Source of the DNA: a virus
Lineage: Duplodnaviria > Heunggongvirae > Uroviricota > Caudoviricetes
DNA: 40,800 nt
Strand: one strand, 5' to 3'
IMG/VR virus record: IMGVR_UViG_2571042621_000026
Positions 1 to 39,379 of the stretch are shown here, piece after piece. Under the pieces are notes generated by a model. The model saw only the letters and a program-made list of their open reading frames with translations, searched no databases and was not told where the DNA came from. A program made the position numbers and the translations under genes. Numbering within the stretch: the stretch's first letter is position 1; the number at the start of each line of letters is the position of its first letter.

Positions 1-270
<270 letters not shown>

Positions 271-475
271 TTACCGTTAAATCATTTTAAAATCAGTAAG
301 TTGTATCGAGTTTGTATGCTTTACTGTCATTAACTTACTGTATGTTGATCCAGTGTATTTAACCTTGATAAACTCAGTCCAGCAACACAAAACCGCAACA
401 CATTGCATTTTGTCCCGTAGAAAAGACTTGTATGTGTGAGCTTGTTTTCTGCGCCTACGCAGATAAGGATTGAGA

Positions 476-1873
476 ATGCCGCGCACTGTAACACATAATC
501 CGGATAGCCCCAATAATGACGATGTTTTAGCCGCATCTGAAAAATGGGACGCCTGTAAACCCCCCTATACCAGCGCACACATGAAAATCTGTGTTGCTGC
601 CGCCAAAATCATCCTCGCTGCTTCCGGCGTGGCTCGCCGTTCCAAATACGAAAAAGAGAACTATCTCCGTATCGATTTCAGCAAAGCCGGTAAGGTTACA
701 TTTTACGCCGAGTTTCCAAAAAAGATGGGCCTCAAGGGTAAAAAGCTCGGCGAGTGGCCGGAGCTCGCTATCCAGCTGGCGCGCGAAAAAGCACTAGGTA
801 TGGCTGACGGTGGACTGCGGGCAGAGTCCGTACATGCAGCGCTGGAAATGTACCGGGATGACCTCAAAGCCAAAGTAGCCCGTCAGAAGCTGAGCCCGGA
901 CAGTTTCACAACCTACGGGGTGCGTATCGACCGGATTAAATCAACGTTCGGCGAGCGCGAGGTGTTCAGCGACGTAACATACAGTCGGCTGGTGGAAGTG
1001 CTGGACGAGTGGATCGCCACTCGCTCGAACAATAACGCCCTGGAGTTGTTTGCCGAGCTCCGTCGGTTCTGGAAGTTCTGCGCACCTACTCTTTGCAACG
1101 GCCGCAATGTTGCCGCCAGTCTGCCAGATGATTATGTTTCCTCCCGCGTACAGAAACCTACCCCCACACGGCTTTTTACCGATATTGAATCAATCGCCCG
1201 ACTCTGGCTCAATGTTGCTGCCTGCACCTCTGTACACCAGAAGAATGCTGTTCGCTTCATGATCATCACTGGTGTTCGTCCGATTAATGTCCATAACCTG
1301 CGCTGGGACTACGTTCACGAGGAGGCTGGTGAAATTGTTTATCCGGAAGGGGTTATCGGCATGCGAGGGGCTATGAAAACACAAAAGGCTTTCCGCCTGC
1401 CGATAACGCCTGAGATCCGGCGGATTATCGACGAGCAGAAAGCCTGGCGTGATTCAGTTCCTGAGTGCAACAGGGATTATGTATTTTTGCAGCCACGTGA
1501 TCCAATGCAGCCATTTTCAAAACGATCACTGGATAAGCTGGTGAAAACATACAGCCCGGACGGGGCTGTAAAAGGAATAAAACATGATGGGACTGTTAAA
1601 GGGAAAGACGGTGCATTTAATACGATGTGCCGTAAATTCCTTAAGAGCAATGTTATTGCCTTGATGAAGGAAAGAGGCTATTCCCGCTCAGACCGAAGGG
1701 AAATCAGCCTCCTTTGCCTTCACCACTCCAGCAAGTCAGATGACCCGATGGCAGAACATTACGACTTTTCTGATGAGATTTTACAGGAAGAGATTGCGTT
1801 GAAGCGCGAAGCTTTCGAGGCTCACGAGCGGAGCATACTTGCGCAGGTGGCATTGCTACGGCGGCGAGGTTAA
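476..1873 (+). CDS. int: Tyrosine-type site-specific integrase
   Basis: 466-aa ORF next to the host junction, with an N-terminal arm-binding-like region and a C-terminal region with His and Tyr residues consistent with a tyrosine recombinase. The six-frame ORF begins at a TTG at 470; the first ATG is at 476. The true start could be further downstream. Confidence 0.8.
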   Translation: MPRTVTHNPDSPNNDDVLAASEKWDACKPPYTSAHMKICVAAAKIILAASGVARRSKYEKENYLRIDFSKAGKVTFYAEFPKKMGLKGKKLGEWPELAIQLAREKALGMADGGLRAESVHAALEMYRDDLKAKVARQKLSPDSFTTYGVRIDRIKSTFGEREVFSDVTYSRLVEVLDEWIATRSNNNALELFAELRRFWKFCAPTLCNGRNVAASLPDDYVSSRVQKPTPTRLFTDIESIARLWLNVAACTSVHQKNAVRFMIITGVRPINVHNLRWDYVHEEAGEIVYPEGVIGMRGAMKTQKAFRLPITPEIRRIIDEQKAWRDSVPECNRDYVFLQPRDPMQPFSKRSLDKLVKTYSPDGAVKGIKHDGTVKGKDGAFNTMCRKFLKSNVIALMKERGYSRSDRREISLLCLHHSSKSDDPMAEHYDFSDEILQEEIALKREAFEAHERSILAQVALLRRRG

Positions 1874-2070
1874 TACTGGCTGCGACATTTTTGAATAAAA
1901 GCGTCGACATTTCGGCGCTCATAACGAACTACTTTTGCACTGAAACGAATTGGTGCCAGGATAGCCCGATGACGATGCTTAATATTCCACTCACATAGCG
2001 TTTTCTGTGTAATACCTAACTTTTGGCATACTTCATCCGGGGTGAGTAAATCGTCGGGTTTCTCGCTCAT
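1870..2070 (-). CDS. AlpA-family excisionase / prophage transcriptional regulator
   Basis: 66-aa ORF with an HTH-like segment (LTPDEVCQKLGITQKTL). Its ATG overlaps the stop of the upstream helicase gene (ATGA), and it converges on int. Confidence 0.65.
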   Translation of the reverse strand: MSEKPDDLLTPDEVCQKLGITQKTLCEWNIKHRHRAILAPIRFSAKVVRYERRNVDAFIQKCRSQY

Positions 2071-3458
2071 GCTATACCTCTCTTTTTCATGGCATCGAGC
2101 AGGATGTCCTGCACTGTTCGTTTTGAGTTGCGCCGCTCCATCACCATTTCGTCCATAGTGTCGGCAGCAATAATGTGGTGAATAAATACCGGACGATTGT
2201 GTCCGGCCTGTATCTGTCTGGTTGGGCCGATACGTTCAATAATTTGCTGATATTGCTCCAGGTCCCACCAGTGTGAGAAAAATACCAGTATATTTCCGCC
2301 GTCCTGCATGTTCAGACCGTGGCCCGCGCTGGCTGGGTGTGCAAAGAGAACAGGAATCTTTCCGGAATTCCAGTCACGTAGTGTCTGTGGATCCTGGTCG
2401 AGGTGACGACCGCGAGGAAATGCTTTAAGCAAGCGTTCAAGATCGTGTTTCCAGTGATAAGCAACCAGCACAGGTGCGCCAGCTGCTTCGGTCAGTATGC
2501 TGTCCAGCGCCTGTAGTTTGGTGTCATGCAGTTCTGACCAACTTCCGGTGTCATCTGTGTATACTGCGCCGCTGGCGATTTGCAGACACTTCAGTGTCTT
2601 TGCCGCGGCGTTCGGTGCTTCGATGCCTTCGCCATTCAGCTCGAGGTACATTTCCTTTTCCATTTCACGATACTGCTGACGGGCCTTCGGCGGCATATCC
2701 ACGCGGATTACGTTATGGATGGGGTCTTTGATATCGAACCAGTCGGCCGCATCCAGCGAGAGGGTCACATCGGCTAACGCTCGCTGTATTTCACCCTGTG
2801 AGTGAGCAAAAGGCTCCAGTTTGGTCCAGCTCTGCCCCGGAAACTGTATCGATTTGAACCAGCGTGAGGTAAACGCGCCGTAAGTGCGCCCGAGACGTTG
2901 CCCCTGGTCCACAAACCACGATTGTCCCCACAAATCTACCAGGCCGTTCGGTGCTGGCGTACCGGTGAGATTTATCCAGCGCCGGACATACTTGTGCGCC
3001 ACTTTGCCCAGCGCCGCCGCGCGCTTACCACCACCTCGCAGCCGGAAGGATTTTAGCCGGGTGCTTTCATCTGGAATGACAGTACCGAACGGCCATCGTT
3101 CTCCCAATTCTTCAACCAGCCAGACAAGGTTATCGTAGTTGATTGTGAACACGCTCGCGTTGCTGTTCGCCAGCGCTGTAGAGCGCGCTTTGGCGTTACC
3201 GATGATCGGCTGTACCTCAATATTACGCAGATGCCCCCATTTAACAGCTTCATCAGGCCAAGTGCTTGCTGCAACGCGTAGCGGCGCGAGGACCAGCGCG
3301 GGGCGTGTTTCTGCTCCAGCCATGAAAAGATCTTCCAGCGTGGTGAGTGTCGCTACGGTTTTACCCATCCCCATCCCTGCCCAGATGTTGCCGCGCAGGG
3401 GCTCGATTTGATGATTGATGATGAGATCTTGGTAGGGACGTGGTTTAAAAGTTATCAT
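2067..3458 (-). CDS. SNF2/DEAD-like superfamily II helicase (phage replication)
   Basis: 463 aa with Walker A (GMGKT) and a DExx box (VIPDESTRLKS), plus a C-terminal helicase domain. ATG at 3456-3458. Confidence 0.75.
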   Translation of the reverse strand: MITFKPRPYQDLIINHQIEPLRGNIWAGMGMGKTVATLTTLEDLFMAGAETRPALVLAPLRVAASTWPDEAVKWGHLRNIEVQPIIGNAKARSTALANSNASVFTINYDNLVWLVEELGERWPFGTVIPDESTRLKSFRLRGGGKRAAALGKVAHKYVRRWINLTGTPAPNGLVDLWGQSWFVDQGQRLGRTYGAFTSRWFKSIQFPGQSWTKLEPFAHSQGEIQRALADVTLSLDAADWFDIKDPIHNVIRVDMPPKARQQYREMEKEMYLELNGEGIEAPNAAAKTLKCLQIASGAVYTDDTGSWSELHDTKLQALDSILTEAAGAPVLVAYHWKHDLERLLKAFPRGRHLDQDPQTLRDWNSGKIPVLFAHPASAGHGLNMQDGGNILVFFSHWWDLEQYQQIIERIGPTRQIQAGHNRPVFIHHIIAADTMDEMVMERRNSKRTVQDILLDAMKKRGIA

Positions 3459-29251: not shown

Positions 29252-29448
29252 CGTTTAACAGCCTGCCGGACGGGCTGTCCTACCTTCTCAATCCGGTTGA
29301 CGCCGGGTTAATTCCTTATACAGCACTTAAAGATGGCTCTGTCGATTTGTACGACATTGCTCTCTTGAATGACCATCTGGCGGTAAAAGCGGATAACCAG
29401 CGGCGCATTGAGAAATGGAGAGAGGATAATGAACGCCGAGACTATTAA
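28799..29448 (+). CDS. Tail assembly chaperone, predicted -1 frameshift-extended form
   Basis: The -1 frame is open from 29146 to the stop at 29446..29448. A -1 slip at AAATTTT (29197..29203) would fuse about 133 aa of the chaperone to about 81 aa of extension (…TFNSLPDGLSYLLNPVDAGLIPY...). Confidence 0.5.
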
Positions 29449-31417
29449 AGATTTCCTCGTCTCGCTTGGCTTCAGTGTGGATGATGCAGGAGCGAAAAAA
29501 TTCGGTTCTGTCCTCGCCGGTACAACTGCAAATGTCATCAAAATGGGGCTGGCCGTCGAAGGAGCTGCGCTGTCCGTGGTGGCCTTCACGGCTAAGATCG
29601 CCTCTGGTCTGGATAATCTTTACTGGGCGTCACAGCGCACCGGCGCGACAGTCCAGGGAATTCAGTCTATTGGCTATGCGGTTTCGCAGGTTGGCGGCAG
29701 CGTGGACGCTGCGCGATCTTCTCTGGAAAACTTCTCCCGGTTTATTCGTAATAATCCCGGGGCGGAGGGATTTCTGAATCGCCTGGGCGTACAGACCCGT
29801 GATGCCAGCGGTAACATGCGTGACATGGCCGCTATCTTTACGGGCGTTGGACAGAAACTCAGCAGCATGCCGTATTACCGGGCTAACCAGTATGCGCAGA
29901 TGCTGGGCATTGACGAAAATACCCTTATGGCGATGCGCCGGGGTGTGGGTGGCTTCTCCGGGCAGTACAGCGCAATGGCGAAAGCTATCGGCTTCAATGC
30001 TGACGAGGCGGCCAGAAGCTCCAACAAATTTATGACCTCCTTGCGTGAGTTTAGCGCGATGGCAGGCATGGCCCGTGACAAAATCGGCTCTAATCTTGCG
30101 GGTGGGCTTGCAGGTTCGCTGGACACCCTGCGCCGCCATATCCTGGACAACTTCCCTCGTATCGAGCAGACTCTGACGAAAGCCATAAAAGGCATTCTGG
30201 CGCTCGGGGATATTATCGGGCGGCTGTTCTTCAGACTGATTGAGGGGACATCAGGCCTTATCACCTGGTGGCAATCGCTGGATAAGCAAACGCGGGAGTT
30301 GATCTCGCTGTTTGGCGCACTGACGATTGCGCTGCGCATTCTGAACAGTACGTTCTGGATGTCGCCGGTTGGCCTCATTACCGCGATGGCGGCGGGGATT
30401 GCCCTCCTGTGGGAGGACTATCAGACCTGGAAGGAAGGCGGCGACAGCCTGATTGACTGGGGCAAGTGGAAACCGGAGGTCGATGCCGCGCTGAAGATGG
30501 TTCGTGACCTTAAAACGACCGTTAACGATCTGGCGAAAGCGCTGGCGAAACTACTCAATATTGACCCCAAATCATGGTCCCTGAAGTGGGATTTCAGCAA
30601 CTTCATCGACCAGATGGGCGAATTCAGCAAAATGCTGAACATGATCGCCGACCTGCTCAACGCTATCAAAGATGGACGCTGGGCTGATGCCGTCAGCATC
30701 GGCAAACAGATACTTAATCAGGGCAGCGAAAATCCGTCAGCGATGCCGATGGTTACAGACAGCGCTAACAGTACTGCCGACTGGATTAAAGAGCACTGGG
30801 GATTCGATCCCCGCAGTGTGGGCCGGACGGTACGCGGCTGGTTTGGTGATGATGAGCCGGAACAACATGCACAGGCTACGAAACGAGGAGAACGGAATAA
30901 CAATCCGGGAAACCTTAATTTTGCTGGTCAGGCGGGGGCTTCTCTTGAACACCCGGGCGGGCGATTTGCCAGATTTGAAACTGCCTTTGATGGATTACGG
31001 GCTCTTGCTCGTCAGTTAATGTTGTACGCCGGGCGAGGAATAAACAGTGTGGAAAAAATTATCTCTACCTGGGCACCTGCCTCTGATAATAACAACACAA
31101 CTGCGTATATCAGGGCTGTATCGCAACGACTGGGAGTGGATCCCCGGGCTGCCCTGAATATGAGCGATCCGAAAACCATGTCAGCATTGATGAGCAGCAT
31201 TATCCAGCATGAAAATGGAAGAAATATCTATTCTCGAGAGCTGATTAATAAGGCTGCCGTGGCGGGAATTAGTGGCAAAATGACAGAGGTTAACCAGCAA
31301 AATACCTACCACATTTACGGTGGCGGAGATCCGCACGCTGTCGGTAATGAGGTTGCACGTCGGCAACAGTCTGCAAATGCTCAGGTCATGCGAAGTAATC
31401 AGGTGAGGGTGGGTTAG
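29429..31417 (+). CDS. Tail tape measure protein
   Basis: 663 aa from the ATG at 29429 with a GGAGAGAGG SD; the six-frame ORF starts at a TTG at 29408. Long helical protein with central hydrophobic segments, following the chaperone. Confidence 0.75.
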   Translation: MNAETIKDFLVSLGFSVDDAGAKKFGSVLAGTTANVIKMGLAVEGAALSVVAFTAKIASGLDNLYWASQRTGATVQGIQSIGYAVSQVGGSVDAARSSLENFSRFIRNNPGAEGFLNRLGVQTRDASGNMRDMAAIFTGVGQKLSSMPYYRANQYAQMLGIDENTLMAMRRGVGGFSGQYSAMAKAIGFNADEAARSSNKFMTSLREFSAMAGMARDKIGSNLAGGLAGSLDTLRRHILDNFPRIEQTLTKAIKGILALGDIIGRLFFRLIEGTSGLITWWQSLDKQTRELISLFGALTIALRILNSTFWMSPVGLITAMAAGIALLWEDYQTWKEGGDSLIDWGKWKPEVDAALKMVRDLKTTVNDLAKALAKLLNIDPKSWSLKWDFSNFIDQMGEFSKMLNMIADLLNAIKDGRWADAVSIGKQILNQGSENPSAMPMVTDSANSTADWIKEHWGFDPRSVGRTVRGWFGDDEPEQHAQATKRGERNNNPGNLNFAGQAGASLEHPGGRFARFETAFDGLRALARQLMLYAGRGINSVEKIISTWAPASDNNNTTAYIRAVSQRLGVDPRAALNMSDPKTMSALMSSIIQHENGRNIYSRELINKAAVAGISGKMTEVNQQNTYHIYGGGDPHAVGNEVARRQQSANAQVMRSNQVRVG

Positions 31418-32004
31418 TGGATATTCTCTCTACACTTTTTCATCAGCAGAGCAGAAAAATAGGAATGATTGTTCCCAGTGTTGTTATTTCAGAGAAGCAT
31501 ACAGATATGCTTGAAATAACCGAGCATCCGGTAGAGGTCGGGGCTGCTGTCGCTGATCATGCCTATAAAAAACCGTCAGAAGTGGTGATGGAGGTTGGTT
31601 TCGCCGGTGGCGGCACATTGCTGGATTTTGCCAGTAACCTGACGGCTACCAGCCTGCTCGGCCTGAGTCCTCAGCAGACGTATCAGGAGCTACTGGATTT
31701 GCAGGAAAGCCGTATCCCCTTCGATGTGGTAACCGGTAAACGGCTGTACAGCAACATGTTGATCCGGGCGCTGGAAGTGACGACGGACAAGACAACCGAA
31801 AATGTCCTGTCCGCCGTCCTTACCCTGAGGGAGGTCCTTATCTCCCGGACACAGCAGATTACCGTCGCGGATAAAACCAACATGAAGGAAGGGGCCAGCA
31901 CGTCGGCGGTACAGAATAGCGGCAACAAAACCACAAAGCCTCCAGATACTTCACTGCTGAAAAGCATTACGGGTAACGTGGCGTCATTACTGGGAGGCGG
32001 CTAA
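31417..32004 (+). CDS. Putative tail/baseplate assembly protein
   Basis: 195 aa with a GTG start overlapping the tape-measure stop, and a GAGGG SD. Confidence 0.45.
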   Translation: MDILSTLFHQQSRKIGMIVPSVVISEKHTDMLEITEHPVEVGAAVADHAYKKPSEVVMEVGFAGGGTLLDFASNLTATSLLGLSPQQTYQELLDLQESRIPFDVVTGKRLYSNMLIRALEVTTDKTTENVLSAVLTLREVLISRTQQITVADKTNMKEGASTSAVQNSGNKTTKPPDTSLLKSITGNVASLLGGG

Positions 32005-32306
32005 TGACAATTCAGGAAATTCCGCTGACAGCGGACAACCAGCAGTTCAGCATCGTCCTGGGCGGTGTCACCTGGCGGATTAGCATCATATGGCGCGATC
32101 TGTACTGGATTATGGACCTGCAGAATGACAGAGGGGAGCCGGTAATCTCCGGTATTCCTCTCGTCACTGGCGCTGATCTGCTGGCGCAGTACGCCTGTAT
32201 GGGGCTTGGTTTTAAGCTGTTGGTGGTCTGCGATGACAACACACAGGATTATCCCACGAAAACTGACCTGGGCAGTTGCAGCCATTTACTGGTATCAACG
32301 GAGTAA
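32004..32306 (+). CDS. Putative small tail protein
   Basis: 100-aa ORF with a GGGAGG SD. Confidence 0.4.
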   Translation: MTIQEIPLTADNQQFSIVLGGVTWRISIIWRDLYWIMDLQNDRGEPVISGIPLVTGADLLAQYACMGLGFKLLVVCDDNTQDYPTKTDLGSCSHLLVSTE

Positions 32307-32308
32307 GC

Positions 32309-33370
32309 ATGTCACAGAACTGGATGAGACATTTCGAGCTGCAGCTTGTGGACGGGAACGGTCAGGGAATTGAGCTAAGTGATTTTAAAGTCACCTTTAC
32401 GATCGACTGGTTCAACATCAGCAGTGCGTCCCGGGTAGGGACTATCAAAATTTATAACCTCTCGGCAGATACTGTGAACCGAATCACCGGGCAGGAGTTT
32501 TCGAAAGTGCGTCTGATTGCGGGTTACGACGGTATCGCGCCGGAGGTGTCGGCAAGCGACGTCGGGATCGTGCGGGAGGTTGATGCGGCGGACGTGGGCC
32601 AGAGTGATGGCCGCAACTACGGACTAATTTTCAGCGGTGAAATTCGCTACTCGGTTACAGGAAAAGACAGTCCGGTTGATTCCTACGTCCTGATTCAGGC
32701 AGCAGATACTGATTTGGCTTTTGCCACCAGTATAACCTCACAGACGCTGGCTGCCGGTTACACGGTCGCTGATGTAAACCGTGCGCTGATGAAAGACTTC
32801 GAAGCCAAAGGCGCGACCGAAGGCCCGACGCCTGAAATGCCTGCTACTGTATTCCCCCGGGGGCGGGTACTCTTTGGCATGACGCGGCATCTAATGGATA
32901 ACGTAGCCGGGCAATGTGGCGCAACATGGCAATTCGTGGACGGTCAGCGCCAGATGGTGGCGAATAACGAATATGTTCATGAAGCGATTGTGCTCAACAG
33001 CGCTACCGGGCTTATTGGCATGCCGCAGCAGACTATCGGTAACGGCGTAAACGTCCGTGCGCTCATTAATCCGAACATCCGGGTTAACGGGCTCATTCAA
33101 CTGGATCAGGCTTCTGTATATCGCACCGCGTTGTCGAACAACGATATCGCTATGGCTGGTGGGCAGATCACCGACCAGAACACGGACGGAAATATTACGC
33201 TCAGCGGCACCACATCACAGCCTGCCAGCATCGCAACGGATGGCGTTTATATTGTGCGCGGGATTATGTACACTGGCGACACAAGGGGCCAGGCGTGGTA
33301 CATGGATATGATGTGCGAAGCGCGTGGCGCGGCGGATCTGTATACGCAATCGGCTTTGCAAAGGGGATGA
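32309..33370 (+). CDS. Putative baseplate hub protein (Mu P / P2 D-like position)
   Basis: 353 aa from the ATG at 32309 with a GGAG SD; the six-frame ORF starts at a TTG at 32276. Confidence 0.5.
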   Translation: MSQNWMRHFELQLVDGNGQGIELSDFKVTFTIDWFNISSASRVGTIKIYNLSADTVNRITGQEFSKVRLIAGYDGIAPEVSASDVGIVREVDAADVGQSDGRNYGLIFSGEIRYSVTGKDSPVDSYVLIQAADTDLAFATSITSQTLAAGYTVADVNRALMKDFEAKGATEGPTPEMPATVFPRGRVLFGMTRHLMDNVAGQCGATWQFVDGQRQMVANNEYVHEAIVLNSATGLIGMPQQTIGNGVNVRALINPNIRVNGLIQLDQASVYRTALSNNDIAMAGGQITDQNTDGNITLSGTTSQPASIATDGVYIVRGIMYTGDTRGQAWYMDMMCEARGAADLYTQSALQRG

Positions 33371-33373
33371 GCA

Positions 33374-33715
33374 ATGAGGGGTATCATTTTTCTGTTAGCT
33401 GTCTTTTCTGCGTGCAGCGCGTGGGCGGATGGCTTCACGGTTAAATGCGGTGGCTACACTATGGTTGCAAACCAGGGCGAGTTATCGACAATCAACGGTG
33501 AAAGAGTTACCTCTCAAAAAATCACCGAACTGGGTACCAATGGTTTGAAAGTAGACATGGGGATTATGCCTGCCAAAGACGGTAACAACTACGGCTTTGA
33601 ATACATTCGTCGCCCTGGTACCGAAACGCGATTTCTGAATGTGCAACTGCTGCAGAACAGCATGGATGCGCCGAAAATCATCGGTTCCTTTCCATGCAAA
33701 AAGATTGTTGATTAA
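33374..33715 (+). CDS. Exported (signal-peptide) protein of unknown function, moron in the baseplate cluster
   Basis: 113 aa. N-terminal signal peptide MRGIIFLLAVFSACSAWA, with a possible lipobox-like FSAC or a signal peptidase I site after AWA. Confidence 0.5.
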   Translation: MRGIIFLLAVFSACSAWADGFTVKCGGYTMVANQGELSTINGERVTSQKITELGTNGLKVDMGIMPAKDGNNYGFEYIRRPGTETRFLNVQLLQNSMDAPKIIGSFPCKKIVD

Positions 33716-33768
33716 TCACTCGTAATTATAATGTGATACTTCTACTTTCACGATAAGGAATTTGTCGC

Positions 33769-34008
33769 ATGTTCGGATTTGATAAATTAATAACTCCAAA
33801 AATCATCAACGTTCTGTATGGCATCACAATGTTACTTCTGGTTGTTGCCGCCATTATAGCGTTTGTTAATGGGAAGGCTGCTGGCGCTTTAGTGCTTTTG
33901 TTATGTGCTGTATTTTGCCGAATATTCTTTGAGTGCATCATGGTTTCATTTAAAAACAATGAGTATCTTCGCCGAATAGCTGAAGCGTTAGAAGCAAACA
34001 AGCAGTAA
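33769..34008 (+). CDS. Small two-helix membrane protein, moron
   Basis: 79 aa with two hydrophobic helices. TAAGGAA SD. AT-rich. Confidence 0.5.
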   Translation: MFGFDKLITPKIINVLYGITMLLLVVAAIIAFVNGKAAGALVLLLCAVFCRIFFECIMVSFKNNEYLRRIAEALEANKQ

Positions 34009-34026
34009 TGAAACTTCAATAATGAA

Positions 34027-34048
34027 CCCGCCACCCGGCGGGTTTTTT
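34027..34048 (+). terminator. Rho-independent terminator after the moron cassette
   Basis: CCCGCC-accc-GGCGGG stem-loop followed by TTTTTT. Confidence 0.7.
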
Positions 34049-34067
34049 GCTTTCTGGAGCCTACTAA

Positions 34068-34820
34068 ATGGCAGTATCTGACCAGACCCGCAGCGGCGAC
34101 CTTGCCGAAACATTCAAATCTGAACGGGAAACAACAAAGAACCAGATCCGTGTCGCCTTGCCTGGCATTGTTCAGTCATTCGAGCCCGACGCGGTGACGG
34201 CGGTTGTGCAGCCTGCTATTCGTTCGGTTGAAAAGGATAACGACGGTAACCGCATTACCAAAAATTACCCGTTGCTGGTGGATGTGCCAGTGGTATTTCC
34301 GCGCGGTGGAGGCTGTACGTTGACTTTTCCGGTTAAAGCCGGGGATGAGTGTCTTGTCGTTTTTGCCGATCGTTGTATTGATTTCTGGTGGCAGAGCGGT
34401 GGGATACAGGAGCCGGTCGATGACAGAATGCATGATTTATCGGATGCGTTTTGTATTGTCGGTCCCCAGTCGCAGGCGAGGAAGATTAGCGGTATTAATA
34501 CCAGTGCCACACAGTTGCGTAGTGACGACGGCAGCACCTATTTTGAGCTTAATCCTGATACCAGGAAAATTAAAATTGTCGCTCCGGGTGGTCTTGATGT
34601 GGTTGCCCCTCTGGCTGATTTTTCTGAGAAAGTAACCATTCATGGCCTGTTAACCTGGTTGGGGGGCATGGTGGGGTCTGTGGTTTCTGGTGTGGCTTCA
34701 AAAATCACTGGTGCTGTTGAGTTCTTGGGGAGCGTTAAGGCTAACGGCAAGCCAATCGATGATACGCACACTCATGGCGGTGTTCAGCGCGGTGGAAGCA
34801 ATACCGATGGGGTAAACTGA
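34068..34820 (+). CDS. Baseplate assembly protein V (spike)
   Basis: 250-aa ORF in the canonical position before the gp25-like and J-like genes. Confidence 0.65.
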   Translation: MAVSDQTRSGDLAETFKSERETTKNQIRVALPGIVQSFEPDAVTAVVQPAIRSVEKDNDGNRITKNYPLLVDVPVVFPRGGGCTLTFPVKAGDECLVVFADRCIDFWWQSGGIQEPVDDRMHDLSDAFCIVGPQSQARKISGINTSATQLRSDDGSTYFELNPDTRKIKIVAPGGLDVVAPLADFSEKVTIHGLLTWLGGMVGSVVSGVASKITGAVEFLGSVKANGKPIDDTHTHGGVQRGGSNTDGVN

Positions 34821-35173
34821 TGCGATACAGACGTGAAGACGCCGATGGTGATTACACCTTTGGCAGCGGTGATGACACCTGGCTGATTAACTCGCCTGAG
34901 GCCGTAGCACAGGCTGTGAAAACGCGATTCGAATTGTGGTATGGGCAATGGTTTCTCGACACCACCGAAGGGACTCCGTGGATCCAGTCCGTGCTCGGTA
35001 AGCAGAAGCCGGAAACCTACAACCTGGCGATCCGTAAGCGCATCCTCGAAACGCGGGGCGTTAAATCAATCCTCTCTTTCAATACGACAGTGGATACCAC
35101 GACCCGACGTGTCATGTTTTCCGCTGAAATCGACACTCTTTATGGAATAACGACTGTTACATCGGAGGCGTAA
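34820..35173 (+). CDS. Baseplate protein W (gp25-like)
   Basis: 117 aa with ATGA-type overlap to the upstream gene. Size and position typical of GPW/gp25. Confidence 0.65.
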   Translation: MRYRREDADGDYTFGSGDDTWLINSPEAVAQAVKTRFELWYGQWFLDTTEGTPWIQSVLGKQKPETYNLAIRKRILETRGVKSILSFNTTVDTTTRRVMFSAEIDTLYGITTVTSEA

Positions 35174-36372
35174 TGGCTCTGAACCTTGATTCTCTCGGTT
35201 TATCTGCAAAGGTAACCGCGGAGGGGATCAGTGCGCCTGATTATCAGACGATACTCAGCACCCTGATTAGCTATTTTCAGCAGATTTATGGCAGTGATGC
35301 CTACCTCGAACCGGACAGCAAAGACGGCCAGATGGTGGCTCTGATGGCGCTGGCGATTCATGATGCCAATAATATGGCGATAACTGTCTACAACTGTTTT
35401 TCACCGGCAACCGGCTATGGGGCTGCACTGACCAGTAACGTGAAAATAAATGGTATTTCACGTAAAGGCGCGACGAATTCTACGGTTGATTTGCTTCTTA
35501 CAGGAACTGCCGGAACAACCATCATTAATGGCAGCGTGAAAGACAGTAATAATGTGATATGGCGTTTGCCTGCTTCAGTGGTGGTAGGCGTGGATGGTAC
35601 AGTGATGGTGACCGCAACATGTTCCGTCAGTGGTGCAGTGGCGGCGCTGGCTGGAACTATCACTGAAATTAATACGCCAACCCGTGGCTGGGTTTCGGTA
35701 ACCAATCCTGCTGCAGCCACTGTGGGCACTCCGGCAGAAACTGACGCTGAGTTACGTATCCGCCAGTCGCAAAGTGTTGCGTTGCCATCAATAACCCCAT
35801 TTGAAGCACTGGATGGTGCTGTTTCTAATGTTACCGGTGTAACCCGCCACAAACTCTATGAAAACGATACTGGTTCGGAGGACGGTAACGGGTTACCGCC
35901 ACACTCTGTTGCTGTAATTGTGGATGGCGGTGATGTAACGGATATTGCTCAGGCTATCAGAGGGAATAAAGGCCAGGGGACAGCCACTCACGGTACAACA
36001 TCCGTTACGGTTCCGGATAAATACGGCAATCCCCATGTAATCAAATTCTCGCGTTCCAGTGATGTGCCTGTTTATGCCCTGATTAAATTAAAAGTTTTTA
36101 CGGGTTATACCTCACAGATAGGGCAGCAGATCCAGCAGGCTATTTCCGACTATATCAATAGTCTGATGATTGGTGATTCGGTCCTTTTAAGTCGCATTTA
36201 CTCACCGGCGAATCTTGGCGTGGTGAGTGGCGGGAATGCACGCTATTACGATATTCAGGAACTGACGATTGGGAAATCCCCGGGGGCTTTGTCGTCATCA
36301 AACATTGATATCAGATACAACGAATCTGCGTCCTGTACCCCGGAAAATATCGTTATAACGGTGGAGTCATGA
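35173..36372 (+). CDS. Baseplate J-like protein
   Basis: 399-aa ORF following the W-like gene. Confidence 0.7.
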   Translation: MALNLDSLGLSAKVTAEGISAPDYQTILSTLISYFQQIYGSDAYLEPDSKDGQMVALMALAIHDANNMAITVYNCFSPATGYGAALTSNVKINGISRKGATNSTVDLLLTGTAGTTIINGSVKDSNNVIWRLPASVVVGVDGTVMVTATCSVSGAVAALAGTITEINTPTRGWVSVTNPAAATVGTPAETDAELRIRQSQSVALPSITPFEALDGAVSNVTGVTRHKLYENDTGSEDGNGLPPHSVAVIVDGGDVTDIAQAIRGNKGQGTATHGTTSVTVPDKYGNPHVIKFSRSSDVPVYALIKLKVFTGYTSQIGQQIQQAISDYINSLMIGDSVLLSRIYSPANLGVVSGGNARYYDIQELTIGKSPGALSSSNIDIRYNESASCTPENIVITVES

Positions 36373-37049
36373 GCAAATACACCGAACTAATCACGAACTA
36401 CCACGCCACCAAACCTAAATTTCTTGCGCATGTTGATCTGATGACCCGGCCACTTATTGATGTTGCGGCTGCCACCAGAGGGCTGATTAGTGCATTTGAT
36501 ATTGACTCTGCGGTTGGTGTGCAACTTGACATCCTTGGATTGTGGATCGGACGTAGCCGTGTTGTCAGCCAGCCTATCTCAGGTGTCTATTTCAGCTGGG
36601 ATACCGACGGGCTTGGATATGATCAGGGTGTATGGCGGGGGCCATATGATCCTGATTCCGGATACATGTATCTCAGCGATGAAACTTATCGTGTCATTCT
36701 TAAAGCGAAGATTGCGATTAATAACTGGGACGGACGGAATGATTCGCTTCCGGTAATTCTTGACGCGGCAACAGCAGGATCCGGGCTGCGAATGCAGATA
36801 GTCGATAACCAGGACATGACGATATCGGTCTGGGTCTTTCCTGATACTGATATTTCAGATGTATCGCGTGAGTTAATTGCTGCAATTAAACAGGGATATC
36901 TCACAGTAAAAGCCGCCGGGGTGTGGGCGGGTGGCATTGAAACACCTTCGGTGGAAACCCCATCGGAAGGTTCAAAATTTTTTGGTTTTGATATGGATAA
37001 CGAATTCATCAGTGGTTTTGATGTAGGGGCATGGGGAGTATTACTCTGA
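36369..37049 (+). CDS. Tail protein I-like (baseplate wedge)
   Basis: 226 aa. Overlaps J and precedes the tail-fibre gene. Confidence 0.6.
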
Positions 37050-37897: not shown

Positions 37898-38502
37898 TGG
37901 ATAAAGCTATATTAAATAAGGAACTCATCGCCACAAAGGCGGGAGATATTACCGTTTATAATTATGATGGTGAAACACGAGAATATATTTCCACATCAAC
38001 CGAATATCTTGCTGTGGGTGTCGGTATCCCGGCATGTTCCTGTTTAGATGCTCCTGGCTCATATAAAGCTGGTTATGCAATTTGCCGTTCTGCAGATTTT
38101 AACTCATGGGAATATGTGCCAGACCATCGCGGTGAAATCGTCTATAGCACCGAAACAGGAGAATCAAAAGAAATCACAGCTCCGGGTGATTACCCTGAAA
38201 AGACAACCACTATCGCCCCGTTAACGCCATACGATAAATGGGATGGTGAGAAATGGGTGACGGATACCGAGGCACAGCATAGAGCAGCAGTAGACATGGC
38301 AGAAACACAGCGGCAGTCGCTGATTGATGCTGCAATGGTTTCCATTAGTCTGATTCAACTGAAATTGCAGGCCGGGCGGAAGCTGACGCAGGCAGAAAAC
38401 ACCCGACTTAACGCCGTGCTGGATTACACTGACGCGGTGATGGCAACAGATACCAGCACCGCGTCAGATGTCATCTGGCCAGTTCCTCCTGAGACGGTTT
38501 AA
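37897..38502 (+). CDS. Tail fibre assembly protein (Tfa / U-like)
   Basis: 201 aa immediately downstream of the tail fibre gene. Confidence 0.7.
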   Translation: MDKAILNKELIATKAGDITVYNYDGETREYISTSTEYLAVGVGIPACSCLDAPGSYKAGYAICRSADFNSWEYVPDHRGEIVYSTETGESKEITAPGDYPEKTTTIAPLTPYDKWDGEKWVTDTEAQHRAAVDMAETQRQSLIDAAMVSISLIQLKLQAGRKLTQAENTRLNAVLDYTDAVMATDTSTASDVIWPVPPETV

Positions 38503-38692
38503 TCTCAATCAGAATGGGTTCTCCCTTCTCGTTAACAGATATTTCCATTCCTTCAGGGATTTCAGATGCAGTAAAAAACCAGTTATCTTCTGGTAATTCA
38601 ACAGCCCCGGTCACGTCATGAAGACCGGGGATTACTTCAGTCAAAGTAACAGGATTAAACAGGCGCACAATAAACCCTCCAGGAAAAAGCAT
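38471..38692 (-). CDS. Alternative (inverted-orientation) tail fibre assembly/chaperone candidate (U'-like)
   Basis: 73-aa minus-strand ORF inside the invertible segment, downstream of the alternative fibre C-terminus. Unusually short. Confidence 0.35.
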   Translation of the reverse strand: MLFPGGFIVRLFNPVTLTEVIPGLHDVTGAVELPEDNWFFTASEIPEGMEISVNEKGEPILIEIKPSQEELAR

Positions 38693-38998
38693 TTATTGAT
38701 GGTGTTCCGTCGTACATCTGGCAGCGGACATAAAAACCGGTATTAGTGACCTGGTCATCCACGATCATTGAAACGTGAACGTTATTAGATGTGCCCCCAT
38801 AATCCGATCCTATTCTTTCCGCTATGCTGATAAAACGTGAAAGCTTAGGTAGCGCAATTGGATAAACGACTTTAGCCAGTCCATTATCATTAGAACCCCC
38901 CGTTCCAAAGACTTCTATTGCACCATCTGACCAGCGTATCCACGCACCATTGGCATTAGCTCCTCGCTGAATGACATATCTGGCTTCTCCCAAACCAA
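38655..38998 (-). other. Alternative tail-fibre variable C-terminal coding segment (S'v-like)
   Basis: Minus-strand reading frame that runs through the right gix site (...VGLGE|ARYVIQRG...). After inversion it would be fused to the constant part of the fibre gene. Confidence 0.5.
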
Positions 38999-39010
38999 CG
39001 TTTATGAAAA
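38985..39010. repeat. Right gix-like recombination site
   Basis: TTCTCCCAAACC-AA-CGTTTATGAAAA. Resembles the Gin/Hin/Cin/Pin crossover-site consensus as recalled, and is inverted relative to the left site. Confidence 0.6.
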
Positions 39011-39064
39011 TGAAGAAATAACAAGCAAATGGCATCATTCCTGCTTTTACTAGGGGGATCCACC

Positions 39065-39379
39065 ATGCTTATTGGCCACGTACGCGTATCAACAAATGAC
39101 CAGAACACCGATCTACAACGTAATGCGTTGAACTGTGCAGAATGCGACCGGATTTTTGAAGACAAGATAAGCGGTACAAAGTCCGAAAGGCCGGGACTGA
39201 AAAAACTGCTCAGGACATTATCGGCAGGTGACACTCTGGTTGTCTGGAAGCTGGATCGGCTGGGGCGCAGTGTGCGGCATCTTGTCGTGCTGGTGGAGGA
39301 GTTGTGCGAACAAGGTGTTAATTTTAGTAGTTATGTTATTACAGGTGGGGGATTTCTCCCCCTTATGCAGATTTTCTAG
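39065..39379 (+). pseudogene. Truncated Gin/Pin/Hin-family serine DNA invertase (catalytic N-terminus only)
   Basis: MLIGHVRVSTNDQNTDLQRNAL...DTLVVWKLDRLGRS... resembles invertase residues 1 to about 88. The similarity ends after GVNF and the ORF stops 17 codons later, so the C-terminal HTH DNA-binding domain is missing. Confidence 0.7.

Follow-up and report, generated by a model that had tools for sequence, protein, structure and literature searches.

What are two small genes doing between the hub and spike genes of a phage baseplate cluster? The question is raised by the viral record IMGVR_UViG_2571042621_000026, a stretch of 40,800 nucleotides (the window), in which two open reading frames (ORFs), here called ORF1 and ORF2, occupy this interval of a contractile-tail module related to that of Salmonella phage SEN34 (genus Brunovirus), a phage of myovirus morphology (PMC5261728). 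An earlier account of this stretch, referred to here as the sequence-only reading, had located both genes correctly and had taken them for a single moron cassette that is out of place in a baseplate cluster, made up of an exported protein of the Cor or Llp kind, a small membrane protein and a terminator of its own. Comparison with related loci leads us to a different picture: in the tail module of this SEN34-like temperate myophage, the hub-spike interval forms a conserved slot for accessory genes. After the hub gene come a gene for an exported protein, variable cargo of 0-2 kb, a terminator and then the spike gene. We place high confidence in this architecture and in the evolutionary picture of the slot that goes with it. 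Envelope-level exclusion, judged by analogy, appears to be the most plausible reading for both genes, and the account as a whole, in which an accessory slot carries independent envelope-level exclusion layers, is one towards which we lean on balance. The slot and its flanks in the window comprise the following features.

32309-33370, + strand: baseplate hub gene, the left flank of the slot (PHROG 196 'baseplate hub', 9e-90; weak Pfam E217_GP41 match; RefSeq coding sequence)
33233-33331, + strand: conserved stretch near the hub 3' end with low third-codon-position entropy, the proposed left recombination arm
33332-33373, + strand: hypervariable hub tail with high entropy, including the ORF1 ribosome-binding site, which travels with the ORF1 allele
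33374-33427, + strand: ORF1 signal peptide MRGIIFLLAVFSACSAWA, predicted cleavage after AWA, with a leader pattern that is conserved in the family
33374-33715, + strand: ORF1, 113 amino acids, a predicted secreted periplasmic small β-barrel, PHROG 3443 (unknown function)
33716-33768, + strand: AT-rich spacer (GC 0.34) carrying the ORF2 ribosome-binding site AAGGA
33769-34008, + strand: ORF2, 79 amino acids, DUF4282, a predicted inner-membrane helical hairpin (Pfam PF14110, 1.6e-10; PHROG 12129)
34024-34050, + strand: intrinsic terminator hairpin and T-run, the conserved right boundary of the slot
34051-34067, + strand: spacer with the spike ribosome-binding site GGAG, conserved along with the terminator in the locus alignment
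34068-34820, + strand: central spike gene, the right flank of the slot (N-terminal spike domain, Pfam 7e-44; Apex motif present)

Two sets of loci were compared, one of 80 loci from Enterobacterales genomes, found with the spike protein as seed, and one of 80 viral contigs found with ORF1 as seed. An ORF1 homologue lies directly after the hub gene in 53 of the 80 spike-seeded loci, from many genera and at 23-97% identity, and every locus with a closely related hub gene has one. In a further 17 loci the hub gene, which is more diverged there, abuts the spike gene with neither ORF1 nor cargo between them. Absences of ORF1 are confined to this diverged tail clade or to loci in which ORF1 has been replaced or degraded; where the slot is occupied by other genes, the first is mostly another signal-peptide protein or a lipoprotein. 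The start codon of ORF1 lies 3-10 nt past the hub stop codon in 78 of the 80 ORF1-seeded contigs. Far from being unexpected in a baseplate cluster, ORF1 is the rule in this tail lineage; it does not show the sporadic presence of a moron in the Juhala/Hendrix sense, and its position is conserved across genera. SEN34 itself carries a homologue of 69% identity. The corresponding annotation, SEN34_20 (L002:3074-3415), begins at an internal start (77 amino acids, 3182-3415) that cuts off the signal peptide, the full ORF being 113 residues long.

ORF2, in contrast, is a true moron that moves independently of ORF1, with the presence and absence among close relatives, the foreign base composition and the following terminator that are expected of a moron in the same sense. 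Its GC content, overall and at third codon positions, is 0.379 and 0.388, compared with 0.542 and 0.61 for the hub gene and 0.515 and 0.514 for the spike gene. The description of both genes as AT-rich therefore holds for ORF2 and the spacer before it and not for ORF1, which is only slightly low (0.468, against 0.515-0.54 in its neighbours). One and the same ORF1 allele (96-99% identity) is followed by ORF2 in 16 viral contigs and by other cargo of ~1.1-1.4 kb in 23, a YafO toxin pair being one of these alternatives. Conversely, the same ORF2 is preceded by ORF1 alleles that are 26-100% identical, and copies of ORF2 that are 98-99% identical can follow an ORF1 allele of 26-64% identity and a hub protein of 47%. 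Of 143 E. coli genomes with a match to any part of ORF2, 82 contain the whole gene. The notion of a single cassette, or of a pair, does not survive this assortment. A trace of the movement is seen in E. coli DEF10, where a 75-nt 3' fragment of the window-type ORF1 (L170:2426-2500) accompanies the ORF2 cassette behind an ORF1 of another subfamily (26% identity); the fragment is a footprint of ORF2 cassette movement.

The wider distribution of ORF2 relatives shows the same mobility across unrelated contexts. In 79 viral loci, the hub-spike slot accounts for 31 copies and the position immediately behind a tape-measure gene for 38, with 10 found elsewhere; 69 of the 79 occurrences are within tail-tip gene clusters. 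The 38 tape-measure genes concerned form 24 clusters at 90% identity and belong to three deep families, with Pfam TMP_3 or SLT domains in nine of ten representatives. A Klebsiella siphophage likewise has its ORF2 relative after the tape-measure gene, and in Pantoea prophages the relative sits after the lysis cassette. A terminator hairpin follows on the 3' side in 73 of the 79 loci, in all contexts. ORF2 matches the Pfam family DUF4282 (PF14110) at 41.9 bits against a cut-off of 27, over profile positions 2-85 of 86, and its AlphaFold2 (AF2) model is a two-helix hairpin (helices 10-33 and 37-78) with a predicted local distance difference test score (pLDDT) of 86.6, in agreement with the membrane protein of two helices that had been proposed. 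The motifs at the N- and C-termini are highly conserved, and the first helix and the loop are variable. The only other match in the Pfam scan (E <= 0.01) is a weak one to the inner-membrane family YbhQ, and no homologue of solved structure was found by sequence.

The strong intrinsic terminator that closes the interval was rightly recognised, but it does not belong to the cassette. The hairpin at 34024-34050 has nine pairs, six of them G-C, with an energy of -18.6 kcal/mol and a z-score of -3.6, and is followed by a T-run. The same arrangement of ACCCGC-loop-GCGGG and T-run, and then the spike ribosome-binding site, is present no more than 55 nt from the spike start in 121 of 132 ORF1 loci, whatever the cargo. 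Loci with ORF1 only also keep it, and it is found in none of the 10 loci in which the hub gene abuts the spike gene. The loop varies, and one stem position shows a compensatory change from C-G to U-A. We conclude that the terminator is a feature of the slot backbone, not part of the ORF2 cassette. A search of Rfam gave just one chance match, below threshold. A near-identical junction, comprising ACCCGC-loop-GCGGG, T-run and ribosome-binding site, closes morons in three tail types: at 34024-34067 of the window (myophage), at L084:5245-5285 (the Klebsiella siphophage) and at L251:899-935 (beside HK97 gp15). This junction may be a portable boundary sequence.

The limits of the exchanged segments are sharply placed. 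In comparisons of the window with loci that carry other cargo, homology on the right always resumes at 34022-34036, and on the left it breaks off at 33702-33718 where cargo is swapped and at 33337 where the ORF1 allele is swapped. Across 70 unique hub sequences, the third-codon-position entropy is 0.14-0.48 bits over 33233-33331, compared with 0.65-0.97 bits upstream, and reaches 1.08-1.33 bits in the last ~13 hub codons, which include the ORF1 ribosome-binding site. Homologous recombination is the probable route of cassette exchange, with the conserved stretch at the hub 3' end as one arm and the junction of terminator and ribosome-binding site as the other.

The nature of the ORF1 product follows from its family. 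Leader features were scored on 136 unique members by a heuristic, not SignalP. A small-x-small cleavage site is present ahead of an invariant Cys in all 136, a K or R lies near the N-terminus in 132, and a hydrophobic 8-mer core is found in 134; by this heuristic the family has a Sec leader with a signal peptidase I site, and the signal peptide that had been suggested for ORF1 is borne out. The leader is variable in sequence yet canonical in form, and the mature part is conserved. The possible lipobox stands only for the window allele, in which the motif F-S-A-C occupies residues 11-14, and for its group: a lipobox-like leader Cys occurs in only 10 of the 136 members, this group included, and is missing from most aligned homologues, so that the family as a whole does not have the conserved lipobox of bacterial lipoproteins. 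Because the lipobox is not conserved, we predict that ORF1 is a soluble periplasmic protein. The invariant cysteines are Cys25 and Cys108, the C-terminal one being present in 135 of 136 members, and the AF2 model is a small up-and-down β-barrel (pLDDT 82.7) with an N-terminal helix of low confidence. Given the Sec signal peptide, the two invariant cysteines and the β-barrel model, ORF1 should be periplasmic and probably disulfide-bonded. Some variants carry the ORF1 domain fused behind a lipoprotein domain with a true lipobox, an arrangement that is consistent with a periplasmic location.

The family is narrow, comprising 671 proteins by profile search and 75 cluster representatives among 1.84 billion proteins; hits of 879-2470 residues in the representative search are probably spurious, and the two that were inspected are repeat proteins. 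It is restricted to Enterobacterales prophages, spanning plant, insect and enteric Enterobacterales, and all named members are labelled hypothetical or secreted. ORF1 has no Pfam family match at E <= 0.01, no match in PADLOC or NCBIfam, no homologue of solved structure by sequence and no significant match in a viral structure library.

Selection on ORF1 is as strict as on the structural genes around it. Within allele groups the ratio of nonsynonymous to synonymous substitution rates (dN/dS) is 0.03 for mature ORF1, compared with 0.04 for the hub, 0.05 for the N-terminal spike domain, 0.07 for gp25 and 0.10 for the plug, and diversifying selection on ORF1 was rejected on this value. Nevertheless, ORF1 identity ranges over 53-100% behind hub genes that are 93-99% identical. 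In loci L139-L146 mature ORF1 is 80% identical to that of the window and all other tail proteins within 4 kb are 95-99% identical; ORF1 is therefore not matched to any nearby structural partner. We conclude that ORF1, though strongly constrained, comes in discrete alleles, which are exchanged between tails that are isogenic in other respects. Covariation with a tail partner was also considered and rejected: ORF1 identity correlates across genera with that of the N-terminal spike domain (rho 0.76) and with that of the hub protein (rho 0.65), but because the allele is independent of these components in near-isogenic tails, the correlation is best explained by linkage and phylogeny. The evidence on ORF1 speaks for a conserved role in the periplasm, as an accessory of the tail.

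An unusual layout is seen in Pseudescherichia vulneris NBRC 102420, where a 5.8-kb contig (L058:1-2900) holds four tandem units of ~625 bp. Each unit consists of a hub 3' fragment and a different ORF1 paralogue, one of which is truncated; the hub fragments diverge in the tail that follows the motif CEARGADDL, and it is the conserved hub stretch that is repeated in the array. The layout resembles orphan toxin-fragment/immunity arrays. Since the contig is short, it may be an assembly artefact.

In other loci the slot houses, among others, a YafO-family toxin, Doc with Phd-like partners, PD-Lambda-1 (T5orf172) and PDC-S42, together with a P22-type antirepressor and a bPH_2 membrane protein. A rough test of hydropathy assigns a hydrophobic leader or membrane segment to 30 of 51 cargo families. 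The cargo of Yersinia phage YP3 (L001:3586-4386) is an uncharacterised protein of 266 residues, and that of SEN34 (L002:3437-3853) an uncharacterised protein of 138 residues with an N-terminal membrane anchor. Rousset et al. are said to have described, in 2022, defence hotspots of P2-like phages and P4-like satellites. The present slot resembles these in being a fixed site between conserved phage genes with swappable accessory or defence cargo (here PD-Lambda-1, PDC-S42, YafO and Doc). It differs in the lineage of its phages and in its location within a late baseplate operon, in having a fixed first position that holds an exported protein, and in having a conserved terminator as its right boundary.

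What might the two products do? Comparison of ORF2 with known inner-membrane proteins suggests an answer for this gene. The moron that encodes HK97 gp15 adjoins the tape-measure gene within the tail operon; its product inserts in the inner membrane and blocks DNA entry, in a manner that depends on the incoming tail (Cumby et al. 2012, as summarised in PMC3594210). Like ORF2, it is a small inner-membrane protein encoded inside a tail operon; it adjoins a tape-measure gene, as do the ORF2 relatives of other phages, and it has the same type of hairpin (ACCCGC-loop-GCGGG and T-run) just before the next tail gene. The two differ in that gp15 has 62 residues and one hydrophobic helix and belongs to the YebO family, whereas ORF2 has 79 residues and two helices and belongs to DUF4282, and in that gp15 has been tested by experiment, whereas ORF2 is known here from sequence and a model. 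T4 Imm, which binds the tape-measure protein (bioRxiv 10.64898/2026.03.06.709160), is likewise a helical inner-membrane protein of ~80 residues from a contractile-tailed phage. It is modelled with four helices and a periplasmic N-terminus, whereas ORF2 has two helices in a hairpin, with conserved ends that are predicted to lie in the cytoplasm; moreover, imm belongs to a virulent phage, whereas ORF2 is a prophage moron. ORF2 is homologous to neither protein, and our claim is therefore that it works like them, not that it is a member of either family. By this analogy, ORF2 in the inner membrane would block the DNA channel formed by the tape-measure protein of the incoming phage, as HK97 gp15 and T4 Imm do, a mechanism that we regard as a serious possibility though a little short of probable.

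For ORF1 the parallel is with periplasmic factors. T4 Spackle (gp61.3) is a small phage-encoded periplasmic protein that targets the hub-spike complex of incoming phages; it is all-helical and inhibits the gp5 lysozyme. ORF1 shares with it small size and predicted export, and is encoded between the hub and spike genes. In contrast to Spackle, ORF1 is modelled as a β-barrel, the spike of its phage has no lysozyme domain in the Pfam scan, and the presence of ORF1 shows no link to the muralytic domain of the tape-measure protein. The proteins Cor (of phi80, N15 and T1) and Llp (of T5) are also small, exported and encoded in or beside tail genes, and Cor blocks FhuA-dependent phages (PMC3594210). 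A reading of this kind needs lipoprotein anchoring, however, and was weakened once the defining lipobox proved not to be conserved in the ORF1 family; ORF1 also has no sequence match to these proteins in the Pfam scan, and its allele tracks no baseplate gene within 4 kb, the tail-fibre gene lying outside most loci. ORF1 could act in the periplasm on the tail tip of the incoming phage or on a host envelope component; an exclusion role, again by analogy, is the leading candidate for it but a more tentative proposal than that for ORF2. ORF1 and ORF2 would then be independent layers of superinfection exclusion, not one module. A broader conjecture, which we consider rather doubtful, is that DUF4282 is a widespread, unrecognised exclusion family that targets tape-measure proteins and moves among tail operons, and that the ORF1 family is a new periplasmic exclusion factor, the two giving a two-layer barrier like that of T4 Spackle and Imm in a recombination-ready slot that also recruits cytoplasmic defence systems.

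Several points weigh against this interpretation. We infer the exclusion role of both genes by analogy and from genomic context. ORF2 has no match in PADLOC or in NCBIfam, no literature in a biological context was found for DUF4282, PF14110, STY1065 or STY2022, BLASTP of ORF2 against HK97 gp15 gives no alignment at E <= 100, and the Pfam scan (E <= 0.01) gives no match to the family of T4 Imm. In ORF2 the conserved motifs are at the two ends that are predicted to face the cytoplasm, and the loop on the periplasmic side is short and variable, unlike what has been described for Imm. Morons are in general readily accepted in tail operons and beside tape-measure genes, and the adjacency of ORF2 could reflect tolerance of insertion. 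The ORF1 allele tracks no tail component within 4 kb, and its target is for this reason not identifiable by covariation. The low synonymous variation at the hub 3' end could be due to an embedded signal, either a promoter or an RNA element, and not to recombination. Expression bears on the matter as well. Promoter-like matches occur at chance frequency in the window and in homologous loci by the promoter scan, so that prophage expression of the slot stays a proposal, and production of ORF1 may be confined to the late lytic cycle.

A promoter-like TTGTTG-16-TATAAT was spotted by eye in the spacer at 33716-33768; the promoter scan did not call it because its -35 element matches only three of six positions. 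A sigma-70 promoter for ORF1 in the hub 3' end was sought both by the scan and by eye and was rejected, as no convincing -35/-10 pair was seen. The prophage encodes a lambda-type Q antiterminator and a lysis cassette. In the lysogen the hairpin would stop transcription initiated in the slot before it reached the spike gene, and during late transcription the Q antiterminator would let RNA polymerase read through.

Other explanations for ORF1 have to be set against an exclusion role. The view that the two genes are inherited together as one moron with a terminator of its own, ORF1 being a receptor-blocking outer-membrane lipoprotein like Cor or Llp, draws on the F-S-A-C motif of the window allele, on the predicted envelope targeting of both proteins and on their joint presence in 40 E. 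coli genomes and 16 viral contigs; with the two genes assorting independently, a terminator that is common to all cargo variants, a signal peptidase I site that is universal where the lipobox Cys is rare, and no Pfam match for ORF1, we think it improbable. Still less credible, and in our judgement very improbable, is that ORF1 is a structural or assembly component of the baseplate whose hydrophobic N-terminus is a membrane-active tail-tip segment and not a signal peptide. Strong purifying selection, a position beside the hub gene in most related clusters and a start 3-4 nt past the hub stop codon, as fits translational coupling, would suit such a role. The leader, however, is variable while keeping the canonical form of a signal peptide and the mature part is conserved, the two invariant cysteines suggest a periplasmic disulfide, lipobox-bearing lipoprotein fusions exist, 17 related tails do without the gene, unrelated exported proteins can replace it, and its alleles are swapped while the tail proteins stay 95-99% identical. 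The sequence-only reading had named homologues serving as structural parts in all related tails as the observation that would overturn it; ORF1 is indeed found in most clusters, but its signal peptide, cysteine pair and lipoprotein fusions argue against a virion component. The paper on SEN34 (PMC5261728) reports no virion proteomics. A third possibility is a periplasmic inhibitor of peptidoglycan hydrolases, resembling PliC/MliC or, in function, T4 Spackle, that neutralises the muralytic domain of an incoming tail tip or tape measure. It would accord with the small periplasmic β-barrel model, with the gene's location between hub and spike and with the RefSeq naming of this phage's tape-measure protein as a lytic transglycosylase, but the fold match is generic (higher scores go to avidins and numerous other barrels), Pfam gives no match to MliC/PliC, SEN34, YP3 and others keep ORF1 with a different tape-measure C-terminal domain, and loci L016 and L066 carry the window-type domain without ORF1. 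We consider this unlikely. Inhibition of the tape-measure muralytic domain in particular was dropped as a candidate after a test for co-occurrence found none.

For ORF2 the choice is between a block to DNA entry and some other membrane function, namely a small membrane toxin or abortive-infection effector, a modulator of lysis timing (holin or antiholin) or a regulator of a host membrane protein. Its small hydrophobic hairpin, the conserved motifs at its predicted cytoplasmic ends, the weak YbhQ match, the Pantoea prophage copies just after the lysis cassette and the toxin-antitoxin systems hosted by the same slot all suit such functions. Against them stand the concentration of occurrences in tail-tip clusters (69 of 79, with 38 directly after tape-measure genes and not beside lysis genes), the lack of a consistently adjacent antitoxin gene and the absence of a PADLOC match; we regard these functions as possible but doubtful. 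One or both genes might instead act in lysogenic conversion as host-fitness or virulence factors, in the manner of lambda Bor or Lom, with no part in exclusion. Morons often serve the host (PMC3594210), both products are predicted envelope proteins, and the prophage comes from human and animal E. coli, with identical copies in Shiga-toxin-producing strains. The spread of the ORF1 family across plant, insect and enteric Enterobacterales, however, argues for a phage-centred and not a niche-specific role, and the recurrent placement of ORF2 beside tape-measure genes suggests a role linked to the tail; lysogenic conversion seems to us an improbable explanation, if slightly less so than the single co-inherited moron. 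Envelope-level exclusion by two independent layers remains the reading that we prefer.

If the proposed functions hold, PHROG 3443 and DUF4282 would gain a testable role in blocking phage DNA entry, a field in which few mechanisms are understood; if they fail, the genes are an ordinary set of prophage accessory genes. The slot is a clear example of how short conserved flanks permit cassette exchange inside an essential late operon. Its signature of hub gene, exported protein, cargo, conserved terminator and spike gene is easy to find and could guide a search for new exclusion and defence genes in the prophages of Enterobacterales, Shiga-toxin-producing E. coli among them.

The stretch that contains the slot is prophage DNA carried by E. 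coli strain 97-3250 and by several further strains of E. coli, with a 100% match over an 821-bp query (33300-34120). Around the hub and spike genes, the tail module of the window contains the following genes.

29429-31417: tape-measure protein (RefSeq annotation, lytic transglycosylase)
31417-32004: Dit-like protein
32004-32306: baseplate plug
34820-35173: gp25-like protein
35173-36372: Baseplate J
36369-37049: DUF2612 protein
from 37031: tail fibre

Mosaicism is also seen elsewhere in this module. The C-terminal domain of the tape-measure protein (window ~30880-31300, motif RNNNPGN), which has no Pfam match, gives way to another domain in close relatives, SEN34 and YP3 among them. The spike is itself mosaic in its C-terminal part (window 34532-34760), with two allele classes, of ~43% and ~98% identity, in otherwise near-identical tails. 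Past the tail-fibre assembly gene, at 38471-39331, lie inverted small ORFs, one of which has a weak match to a tail-fibre C-terminal domain, and after them a truncated serine recombinase (Resolvase N-terminal domain, 2.5e-27); this region resembles the relic of an invertible segment used to switch between fibre types.

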